From a virus (Duplodnaviria; Heunggongvirae; Uroviricota; Caudoviricetes), in IMG/VR virus record IMGVR_UViG_2548876695_000016: 5,808 nucleotides of DNA; one strand, written 5' to 3'. Position numbers and translations under genes: made by a program. This document shows positions 93 through 3,902 of the stretch, piece after piece. Below the pieces are notes generated by a model that worked only from the letters and a program-made list of their open reading frames with translations, did not search any database and was not told where the DNA came from. Position 1 is the first letter of the stretch. Every line of letters begins with the position of its first letter.

Positions 93-178
93 CGAATTTC
101 TCCCGTGTAGAGGAACAGAGTTAAAAAGCCGGAAGCGGAATCAAATCACAGGATGACCATCTGCCAGTGGCAGGTCAT

Positions 179-205
179 AAAAAAAAGGCTGCGCAATGCG
201 CAGCC
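179..205 (-). terminator. Rho-independent terminator on the minus strand
   Basis: Minus-strand RNA would form an 8-bp GC-rich stem (GGCUGCGC / GCGCAGCC, plus coords 187-194 and 198-205) with a 3-nt loop, immediately followed by U8 (plus-strand A8 at 179-186). About 85 nt upstream of the left-edge gene start. Confidence 0.85.
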
Positions 206-634
206 AGAACTCACAAGGAAAATGATAAAAGGAATAACACTAGTGATGTACGCATGGCGCCTCCCGCTAAGTTCTGCAATGATCAAACAGAACTCGCTAC
301 GTGCCCTTAAAACTCGATCATTTAGCCCCTCCAAGGAGGATTCACCATGCGGTTGATTTTTTAATAAACAGTAAACAAAAAAGTCAAGAATTATGCATTC
401 TGTTCTTTCATCATCGGCCACAGCAATACCACAATGCCGCAGACCAGAGCGCCATCAGTCAGTACCAACATTATCCTGCTGGTGAAATCCATCATCACCA
501 TCACTAAAAGCAGGATCACAACAGCAAGCAGACACAGTTTATAAAACAATGTTCAGAAAACGCATTCAGCATGCCTAAGGTTCTATTCCTACGAATAGCC
601 AACTTGCAACTTAAAATATTATTTATGCAGCCAA

Positions 635-1393: not shown

Positions 1394-1490
1394 AACAAAA
1401 GCAATTCAATGCCGTCAAGAGGTTACAGGCTAAAAAAACTCTATTACATAGCAGCCAGCATGTTTACCGTACAAGTACAACTCAGGGCAT

Positions 1491-1514
1491 AAAAAAAACC
1501 CACTCGGCAGCGGG
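1491..1514 (-). terminator. Intrinsic terminator just downstream of the Q-like gene (candidate tR')
   Basis: Minus-strand RNA CCCGCUGCCGAGUGGG forms a 6-bp stem (including one G-U pair) with a GCCG loop, followed directly by U8 (plus-strand A8 at 1491-1498). The plus-strand equivalent has an A-C mismatch, so it is orientation-specific. Confidence 0.55.
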
Positions 1515-1550
1515 TTTATACATTTTTTACAACATACCAAATTTGCATGA

Positions 1551-1579
1551 AGTATATGGCTTTTAATCCAGTTTTGCAA
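1551..1579 (-). promoter_or_regulatory. Candidate sigma70 late promoter (pR'-like) overlapping the 3' end of the Q-like gene
   Basis: Minus strand: -35 TTGCAA (1579-1574), 17-nt spacer, -10 TATACT (1556-1551). Predicted start near 1544 gives a ~50-nt transcript ending at the 1491-1514 terminator; the initial transcribed region contains -10-like elements (TATGTT, TGTATAAA) of the kind that induce sigma-dependent pausing at Q-utilisation sites. Confidence 0.4.
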
Positions 1580-2727: not shown

Positions 2728-3687
2728 ATGAAAAAAAGTGTCATCGCTGGCGTCTTTATTGCTCTGTCATTTACCACGTGTTCAGCTATCGCGAACAGCC
2801 TTGCATTATCATTAGCAAATGATGATGCAGGGAAGTTTCAACCAATACTTAATGATATTTATGGCAATAAACATGAAAACAGAGATGATTACTCACAAGG
2901 CTTATTTCTGGGATATAGCCACGATATCTCAGACTCGAGCCAATTATCTCTCCATATTGCGCAAGATATTTACTCTCCATCAGGCAGTAATAAAAGACAC
3001 AACACAGCTGTAACTGGAGACAGAGCTTTTAGTGCATACACTCACACTGGTATTGAATGGAACTCCCTTGCGAATGACTGGATTCGCTATCGATTAGGTA
3101 CTGACATAGGTGTTGTTGGCCCCGACGCAGGCGGTCAGAAAGTACAAAATAAAGCTCATGAGATTATTGGGGCAGAAAAATATCATGCATGGGATGATCA
3201 AATAGAGAATCGCTACGGTTATACTGTAAAAGGGATGCTATCCATGACACCAAGTATGGATATTTTAGGTGCTAATGTTGGATTATACCCTGAAGTTTCT
3301 GCTGTTACTGGAAACTTATTTCAATATGTAGCATATGGCGCAACCATTGCCATTGGTAATGATAAAACCTTCAATTCGGATAATGGCTTTGGTCTGCTGG
3401 CTCCCCGTGGTTTAATGCATATGTCCGATACAAGCGGATTCAAATACAAGATTTTTGCAGGTATGGAAAGACGAGATGTCAATCGCAACTATACTCTCGA
3501 AGGAAAAACAATACAGACGAAACAAACAACAGTATCGCTAAACAAAACTGTTGATGAATATCAAGTTGGCGCAACAATTGGGTATGCACCTGTAGCCTTC
3601 ACACTAGCATTTAATAAAGTAACATCAGAATTCAAGACAGGGGATGACTATTCATTTATAAATGGAGCAATCACCTTCTTTTTTTAA
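2728..3687 (+). CDS. lpxR: Lipid A 3'-O-deacylase LpxR family outer-membrane beta-barrel protein
   Basis: 319 aa with AGGAAG Shine-Dalgarno upstream of ATG 2728; N-terminal signal peptide MKKSVIAGVFIALSFTTCSAIA; C-terminal FFF typical of outer-membrane barrels. With cleavage after AIA, mature Asn9-Asp10 (codons at 2818-2823) and His122 (3157-3159) coincide with the LpxR catalytic residues as I recall them; position 34 is Ser where I recall Thr. Length matches the 319-aa Salmonella LpxR precursor. AT-rich gene and flanks. Confidence 0.85.
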   Translation: MKKSVIAGVFIALSFTTCSAIANSLALSLANDDAGKFQPILNDIYGNKHENRDDYSQGLFLGYSHDISDSSQLSLHIAQDIYSPSGSNKRHNTAVTGDRAFSAYTHTGIEWNSLANDWIRYRLGTDIGVVGPDAGGQKVQNKAHEIIGAEKYHAWDDQIENRYGYTVKGMLSMTPSMDILGANVGLYPEVSAVTGNLFQYVAYGATIAIGNDKTFNSDNGFGLLAPRGLMHMSDTSGFKYKIFAGMERRDVNRNYTLEGKTIQTKQTTVSLNKTVDEYQVGATIGYAPVAFTLAFNKVTSEFKTGDDYSFINGAITFFF

Positions 3688-3812
3688 CTGAATTGAATTC
3701 AATCAAAATAACATAAGTCCAACAAAAACATAAAGTGCGAAATGAATGCCAGCTCCATTTATTTCGCACTATAAAAGATTAAAAGTTGCAATAAAATAAT
3801 AAAATGACTCAG

Positions 3813-3902
3813 TTACGAAAACCAATAAACTGTGGCCAGTAGTGAGTCGCTCATCATCGGGCTTTTTGGCGAATGAAATTTAGCTACGCTTTCGAGTCTC
3901 AT
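3813..3902 (-). pseudogene. 5' remnant of a lambda-type Q antiterminator gene (29 codons then stop)
   Basis: Minus-strand ATG at 3902-3900 overlaps the phosphatase stop (ATGA) and reads [29 protein letters not shown]. The first 20 residues equal the lambda Q N-terminus as I recall it ([25 protein letters not shown]...); similarity decays over codons 21-27 and the frame terminates. Confidence 0.75.

Follow-up and report, generated by a model that had tools for sequence, protein, structure and literature searches.

Gene layout of the late-operon leader in phage 434

The window, by which we mean the whole stretch of 5,808 nt analysed here, derives from Escherichia phage 434: it is 99.7% identical to OL657226.1 over 99% of the query, as the reverse complement, and its nin and late genes all lie on the minus strand (Table 1). 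Read in the direction of late transcription, the Q82-like Q gene is followed by a promoter-like site and a terminator, by two cargo genes coding for a membrane protein and the DUF3927 protein TciB, by the element that is the subject of this study, and then by an esterase gene. The Q-to-lysis region of 434 is essentially that of the EPEC prophage PP2. Further upstream, the remnant of a lambda-type Q abuts the opposite-strand lpxR gene and marks the junction at which the original Q gave way to another. A search of the window with ARAGORN found neither tRNA nor tmRNA genes. Within positions 140-400 the window differs from OL657226 at a single base (position 395, G in the window and T in the record on the plus strand), which alters the penultimate codon of tciB, and over 150-400 the window has an exact match in E. 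coli strain 2011C-4251.

Table 1. Features of the window and of the PasD2 element (coordinates are window positions)
Feature	Position	Strand	Remarks
ninB...ninG-ninI	...-3899	minus	
lambda-type Q N-terminal remnant	~3804-3893	minus	90 nt, after ninI
lpxR	2728-3687	plus	lipid A deacylase; PF09982
ylcG	between lpxR and Q		
Q82-like Q	1563-2252	minus	PF03589
promoter-like site TTGCAA-17-TATACT	1579-1551	minus	directly after Q82-like Q; promoter scan
terminator after Q	1517-1489	minus	terminator scan; annotated in OL657226
membrane-protein gene	635-1378	minus	cargo
tciB	391-549	minus	cargo; DUF3927, Pfam PF13064, E = 7e-14
-35 hexamer TTGACT of pasD	382-387	minus	family consensus TTGNCT; putative activity
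-10 hexamer TAAAAA of pasD	358-363	minus	final T missing; mapped 5' end follows after 7 nt
pasD2	179-350	minus	172 nt; 5' end G350; 3' end in U-tract at 179
P1, 5' strand GCAUGGUG	343-350	minus	pairs with 259-252 in MFE and centroid folds
P2 hairpin CCUCC-UU-GGAGGGG	326-339	minus	counterpart of the invariant STnc100 hairpin CCCCCUGUGCGGAGGGG in the alignment
CDS CPT_434_70, 'putative membrane protein'	146-334	minus	GenBank; TTG start, 62 aa
P4 hairpin GAGUUCUG...CAGAACUU	269-295	minus	sole helix with covariation
P1, 3' strand CGCCAUGC	252-259	minus	directly after GGGAGG
seed UGUGAG	210-215	minus	targets CUCACA; RIL-seq/MEME (Pearl Mizrahi 2021, Fig. S5, Table S7); identical in 434
intrinsic terminator of PasD2	179-205	minus	stem 205-187, U8 186-179; homologue in 933W and BP-4795
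second hairpin	153-178	minus	esterase 5' UTR, directly after the terminator
start of sialate O-acetylesterase gene	1-92	minus	SASA family, nanS-p type; first gene after PasD2; annotated in OL657226 and E2348/69

Identity of the element with the PasD2 small RNA

The minus-strand segment running from 350 to 179 is identical at 172 of 172 nucleotides to PasD2 of the EPEC strain E2348/69, and the same sequence stands in the GenBank record of 434. PasD2 (NC_011601.1 741157-741328, 172 nt) and PasD1 (1060260-1060432) were described by Pearl Mizrahi 2021 (Table S6, PMC8550237). In that study, RNA-seq and Northern analysis place the 5' end of PasD2 on the counterpart of window 350 and its 3' end on that of 179. 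The PasD RNAs of EPEC give a Northern band of the predicted size, are highly expressed without prophage induction, rank high by the number of RIL-seq interactions, and form Hfq-bound RIL-seq chimeras with mRNAs carrying CUCACA (PMC8550237). Among the published partners are uspA, gltI and spr, which K-12 possesses as well. The complementary UGUGAG seed lies in a single-stranded segment immediately before the terminator. The Northern probe of that study corresponds to window 195-218, with one mismatch. These RNA-level data come from EPEC, where the sequence is identical, 434 itself being known here from its sequence. We conclude with high confidence that window 350-179 encodes PasD2, a small RNA of 172 nt that associates with Hfq and acts in trans. 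Deletion of hfq changed the abundance of PasD2 little under activating conditions (log2FC 0.55; DESeq2 table, PMC8550237), so that its stability may not depend strongly on Hfq. The EHEC homologue of PasD is EcOnc13 (PMC8550237 supplement).

An earlier sequence-only reading of this DNA had proposed a transcript starting near 350 and ending at 179-205, in agreement with the published ends of PasD2 in the identical EPEC sequence. Its proposal of a separate unit of promoter, ~170-nt RNA and terminator thus holds in so far as this unit is the PasD2 gene; the view of that unit as a late promoter left behind by a swap of Q does not hold, as discussed below.

The phage context is equally in line with what has been described for PasD. 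Zhu, Shabalina & Storz (2026 preprint) assigned sequences to PasD by a match over more than 75% of the length of the PasD query, and the window element matches over 172 of 172 nt; they report Q (PF03589) and LpxR as conserved neighbours, both of which lie within 10 kb of the element in the window, and pasD directly upstream of a sialate esterase in phage 2B8, to which the window is 97.3% identical over 261 nt. PasD2, its kinship with STnc100 and its phage context are already published; the main text of the preprint does not name phage 434 or discuss promoters, and our literature search found no genome paper on phage 434 (OL657226) and nothing on EcOnc13. Compared to the window element, PasD1 of E2348/69 differs by four substitutions and one inserted base. 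Both E2348/69 copies share the seed and the terminator with the window element, and both have the same neighbours as in 434, namely LpxR, Q, the membrane protein and DUF3927 upstream and the esterase downstream. PasD2 of E2348/69 belongs to a prophage of a pathogen, whereas the 434 copy, with no difference in its sequence, belongs to a classical and viable laboratory phage.

The GenBank record of 434 has no ncRNA at the element, but a CDS and a terminator. That this CDS, CPT_434_70, is a genuine protein-coding gene would fit its TTG start and a nearby purine-rich stretch, but is barely credible given that an intrinsic terminator lies inside the reading frame and that the product matched no Pfam family. 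Moreover, PasD1 and PasD2 differ by a 1-nt indel that breaks the reading frame beyond residue 31, and the RefSeq pipelines call different ORFs at this place, some of them on the opposite strand. The record hence probably carries a spurious CDS where the sRNA gene lies.

Phage 434 also contains a 100% identical copy of the 85-nt sRNA PasA (OL657226, locus L001, 1008-1092), ~1.9 kb to the left of window position 1. It is situated between the esterase and the holin, on the strand opposite to the late transcripts, and the only GenBank annotation at this place is a terminator. As 434, a classical laboratory phage, carries exact copies of PasD2 and PasA, both of them "pathogenicity-associated" sRNAs, it offers a tractable and non-pathogenic system in which to study them.

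A structured 5' domain shared with STnc100

Searches with Rfam models recovered a full-length match to STnc100 (RF02076, model positions 1-206) at 380-176 on the minus strand, with 41.4 bits and E = 1.3e-6. The gathering score of 47 bits is reached neither by PasD2 nor by PasD1 (37.7 bits), whereas canonical STnc100 copies score between 81 and 208 bits (933W, BP-4795, 1717, PhiR12_1, Evi, 813R8 and a Klebsiella phage). Zhu, Shabalina & Storz (2026 preprint) describe PasD as structurally homologous to STnc100 and as sharing ancestry with it. We thus regard PasD as a diverged member of the STnc100 family, in which the conserved 5' domain is joined to a different tail of seed and terminator.

The whole 172-nt RNA folds with -58 kcal/mol (z = -3.1 against shuffles). 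Among the helices of the STnc100 5' domain, P1, P2 and P4 are present in PasD2, while the 3' strand of P5 is deleted and the loop of P2 is 3 nt shorter than in canonical STnc100. It is because the 3' half of P5 is missing that the 3' strand of P1 comes directly after GGGAGG in PasD. In the minimum-energy fold of PasD2, the CCUCCU of P2 pairs instead with this GGGAGG (265-260). Across 25 diverse family members, 97% of the cells of the consensus structure are paired. Compensatory changes affect six of the seven pairs of P4, which reads UUCUG/CAGAA in PasD and UUCAG/CUGAA in most copies. In the same 25 sequences P1, P2 and P5 hardly vary and give no evidence of covariation. The five consensus pairs of P1 are 100% paired with G-U variants only, a count to be read with the caveat that MAFFT placed the 3' ends of PasD and of L233 under P5 rather than P1, which affects the P1 and P5 counts for both rows; P1 of PasD2 itself rests on a single-sequence fold. 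We did not follow the cloverleaf-like topology that the 5' domain of STnc100 shows, as PasD is devoid of P5.

STnc100 is represented by EcOnc27/sRNA103 downstream of stx2B and by EcOnc42 downstream of stx1B. PasD shares with it the 5' end GCAUGGUGAAUCC, the helices P1, P2 and P4, the promoter block, and the late-leader position upstream of an esterase or a holin. The two differ in the seed and the terminator tail: the terminator of PasD is the homologue not of STnc100's own terminator but of a second one that lies ~150 nt beyond STnc100 in 933W and BP-4795. In these two phages the anti-sRNAs AsxR and AgvB are encoded antisense, between the STnc100 terminator and this second, PasD-homologous terminator (L004 3501-3760; L007 2990-3264). 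Taking IMG/VR and GenBank phages together, at least 13 different 3' tails occur behind this 5' domain. A near-invariant 5' domain of ~100 nt with variable tails is the reverse of the usual sRNA pattern, where the seed is conserved and the body varies.

The domain (P1, P2, P4 and usually P5) is unchanged from E. coli to Klebsiella phages, and one may ask if it has a function of its own, apart from the Hfq-mediated pairing of the tail. We regard this as a doubtful proposition; possible forms of such a function are the binding of a protein or of ribosomes, or an action in cis on the late transcript, which has to run through it. As all copies lie behind the true pR'/tR' and ahead of the first late genes, the element could conceivably be a conserved late-operon checkpoint, with the role as an sRNA being secondary.

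Distribution, gene neighbourhoods and the mini-ORFs

To describe the neighbourhoods of the family we surveyed 145 copies of the element at 129 loci, on which a panel of Q and neighbouring proteins was mapped. The nearest upstream feature is a DUF3927/TciB-like ORF in 42 of the 145 copies, and the nearest downstream feature is the esterase or its DUF1737 N-terminal part in 79; a reversed iraM gene lies downstream in 36 copies and a holin in 14. Some phages have tandem copies, ~470 nt apart. PasD-type sequences occur in 679 of 5,426 complete E. coli genomes, in 917 copies, all of them chromosomal. A scan of genome contigs with the 16-mer CATGGTGAATCCYCCT gave nothing beyond chance matches to unrelated phyla. 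The element is absent from 434B; since this phage is a laboratory recombinant with the qsr' region of DLP12, the absence shows no more than that PasD falls within the Q-to-S replacement block.

The co-orientation of promoter, structured RNA, terminator and gene, and the frequency of the esterase or DUF1737 as the nearest downstream feature, would also fit a leader acting in cis, that is, an attenuator that sets the expression of the esterase and in which mini-ORFs couple translation to termination. Ribosome footprints on some EHEC STnc100 copies (PMC5331693) are in keeping with such a leader. The sequence-only reading had proposed this coupling on the basis of a palindromic Shine-Dalgarno element and of mini-ORFs on both strands, MRLIF at 347-364 on the plus strand and MIEF at 321-307 on the minus strand. 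Both mini-ORFs do read so, and the palindrome CCCCTCCAAGGAGG is present, at 326-339 and hence one base shorter than the 326-340 that had been given; it is the helix P2, and when folded by itself it does not exceed shuffled sequences in stability (z = 0.19).

The family does not bear out the coupling itself. Among its 84 unique variants, 59 lack a start codon at Shine-Dalgarno spacing after GGNGG, and the sense mini-ORFs of the rest encode unrelated peptides of 1-78 aa. On the antisense strand, the ORFs behind the ATG range from two to more than 40 codons, and this ATG is conserved only because it is the complement of a conserved CAU at +2 to +4. The copies that are followed by a reversed iraM or a holin, as well as those in tandem, are equally hard to reconcile with an esterase attenuator, and no alternative antiterminator pairing is evident. 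Consequently, we consider a cis-acting leader very unlikely and retain the trans-acting sRNA as the product of this gene.

A conserved putative promoter block upstream of the RNA

The sequence-only reading had pointed to TTGACT at 387-382 with a weak -10, and such is the case: the -35 hexamer is present and is followed, after an 18-nt spacer, by a TAAAAA devoid of the usually essential final T. It is on account of this missing T that our consensus promoter scan did not call the pasD site. The lone TTGACT is in itself not unusual for the window (one found against 3.7 expected). A comparison of 52 unique upstream sequences of the family showed the strongest conservation for T(T)AAAA(A/G)A at -13 to -6, along with a -35 consensus TTGNCT at -36 to -31 and an 18-nt spacer. 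Most non-PasD copies have an extended TG at -15/-14; PasD lacks the TG and has a better -35 in the form of TTGACT. The block is kept whatever lies upstream, be it stxB, tciB or no gene, and this conservation irrespective of the upstream gene suggests that the RNA has its own promoter. PasD2 would most likely be transcribed from its own sigma-70 promoter, in lysogens.

The 5' end of PasD2 in EPEC was obtained from RNA-seq coverage, not from a method specific for primary transcripts, and processing from a longer tciB transcript is therefore possible. The RNA would then have no promoter of its own but be the processed 3' end of the membrane protein-tciB mRNA, and its terminator would be that of the operon. 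The stop codon of tciB, which precedes the -35 hexamer by 4 nt, is indeed only 41 nt from the 5' end of the RNA, there is no other minus-strand terminator between 1496 and 205, and the weakness of the -10 and the 42 copies with a DUF3927-type ORF as upstream neighbour point the same way. Against this, the sequence of the 5' end and the TTGNCT-18-TAAAAR block are kept where stxB or no gene lies upstream, and the 5' end falls 7 nt past the conserved -10. Furthermore, an RpoD ChIP-exo signal has been reported at the STnc100 promoters of Salmonella (PMC10794520). On balance, we hold processing to be unlikely and favour initiation at the pasD promoter.

The terminator and the second hairpin

The minus-strand terminator, which had been singled out as strong from the sequence, is the strongest terminator-like site of the window: its stem, GGCUGCGC-AUU-GCGCAGCC, has 8 bp of which 7 are G-C, and it folds with -15.9 kcal/mol (z = -4.8), none of 200 shuffles being as stable. 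It likely serves as the Hfq-binding 3' end of PasD2. That it also ends the transcript of the cargo genes, the alternative offered in the sequence-only reading, is plausible in view of the lack of another minus-strand terminator between 1496 and 205. It may be the first block that transcription meets on the way from the cargo genes into the esterase and lysis genes. Matches to asX2, SorX and SorY were rejected as the identity of the element, their Rfam scores being far below gathering and their alignments lying mainly over the terminator hairpin.

The composite hairpin directly behind the terminator folds as had been described, with AUGACC/GGUCAU around CUGC/GCAG (-10.8 kcal/mol, z = -2.5, with 3 of 200 shuffles as stable). 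It is identical at the PasD1 and PasD2 loci. In the sister tail of the Evi/L142 type, substitutions break its pairs without compensation and change the minimum-energy fold, and these uncompensated changes leave a function of this hairpin unsupported. In the fold of the remaining esterase 5' UTR (93-152, minus strand), CCUGUG, immediately 3' of that hairpin, is paired with a CACGGG that shares bases with the Shine-Dalgarno GGGAGA of the esterase; this predicted pairing could possibly mask the Shine-Dalgarno from translation.

Relationship to Q and the probable true late promoter

The layout is superficially that of lambda, with a TTGACT -35, an RNA of ~170 nt and a strong terminator upstream of the first late genes. 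From this, the sequence-only reading had derived an orphaned Q-dependent module of promoter, leader and terminator, of the pR'-6S-tR' type and with its qut site, left behind when Q was exchanged. The truncated N-terminus of a lambda-type Q after ninI attests that Q was replaced in this lineage, and short pR' transcripts can be Hfq-associated sRNAs, as exemplified by StxS (PMC7547250). Yet the comparison with the qut region of a lambdoid phage, which that reading had suggested as a check and which we carried out with lambda, gave no similarity: the local alignment with the lambda Q-S intergenic region (pR', 6S, tR') scores 18, against a shuffle mean of 19.2 +/- 2.5. A run of T is likewise the only similarity between the element and the window's own post-Q module of the 82 type. 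No -10-like TANNNT pause element is seen in +1 to +30 (GCATGGTGAATCCTCCTTGGAGGGGCTAAATG), which is a weak test, read from the sequence.

The position of the element relative to Q also speaks against an orphaned module. In 434 the transcription start lies ~1.2 kb from Q, and between them are two cargo genes as well as Q's own promoter and terminator at 1579-1489, which are likely the true pR'/tR' module of this phage. Among the 103 copies with a Q gene in the locus, six reference Q proteins are found as best hits of the preceding Q. The nearest upstream co-oriented Q is Q82-like in 23, lambda-like in 39 and 933W-like in 29 cases, with the 1717, PhiR12 and Evi types also represented. The distance from the end of Q to the start of the RNA is at least 364 nt in all copies with Q. 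Even at this minimum, in PhiR12_1, a TTGACA-18-CATAAT promoter (2633-2662) overlaps the end of Q and is followed 40 nt later by a terminator (2703-2723), both of them upstream of the element. Within a single strain, E2348/69, an identical membrane protein-DUF3927-PasD cassette follows two different Q genes, a Q82-like one in prophage PP2 and a different one of 624 nt in PP4. The element therefore moves together with the cargo and the esterase or holin downstream, and is not tied to a Q gene. We accordingly judge it highly improbable that the element is an orphaned late promoter, and see in it the gene of PasD2, lying behind a separate late promoter.

The leader between the promoter-like site at 1579-1551 and the terminator at 1517-1489 gives a weak Rfam match to STnc240 (1487-1579, minus strand; 28.2 bits against 55, E = 0.45). 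A possibility raised by this match is that STnc240 may represent the pR'-tR' transcript of the 82-type Q module.

Proposed action of PasD2 and comparison with known systems

The PasD2 gene sits in the late-operon leader of 434, where it closes a cargo cassette (membrane protein, TciB/DUF3927, PasD) and closely precedes the genes for the esterase and lysis. In the model that we propose, the sigma-70 polymerase would in lysogens initiate from its predicted promoter (TTGACT, 18-nt spacer, TAAAAA), and the RNA starting at G350 would begin with the structured domain (P1, P2, P4) inherited from the STnc100 family, continue into a U-rich single-stranded stretch with the UGUGAG seed, and end in the terminator. 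Going by the EPEC data on the identical sequence, it would act in trans through Hfq-bound pairing with CUCACA-containing mRNAs. Antitermination by the lambda Q protein is an established model. At the PasD2 terminator, any transcription without the Q modification would end before the esterase and lysis genes, be it that starting at the PasD promoter or that coming from the cargo genes, and polymerase modified by Q at the true pR' (~1551) would read through the terminator. This role as a barrier follows from the lambda model of Q antitermination (summarised in PMC7547250).

The conserved promoter block, together with the fixed position behind the true pR'/tR', argues that these elements are autonomous late-operon units, not relics of late promoters. 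One parallel is provided by lambda 6S and StxS, which are short pR' transcripts ending at tR' (Sy et al. 2020, PMC7547250). Like these, PasD2 would have a constitutive promoter, yield a short terminated RNA in lysogens, and possess a terminator that needs read-through by Q-modified polymerase; with StxS it further shares Hfq-dependent regulation in trans (PMC7547250). In contrast to these, PasD2 lies at a distance from Q, shows no similarity in sequence to lambda 6S, occurs with several types of Q, and coexists with a separate pR'/tR' module at 1579-1489.

A second parallel is provided by the phage morons, which are units of a promoter, a cargo gene and a terminator inserted in the late operon. 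PasD2 resembles them in its predicted autonomous promoter and its terminator, in being co-oriented with the late operon, in its expression from a prophage, and in that its cassette moves between phages with different Q genes. Unlike in the morons, the cargo of PasD2 is a regulatory RNA and not a protein.
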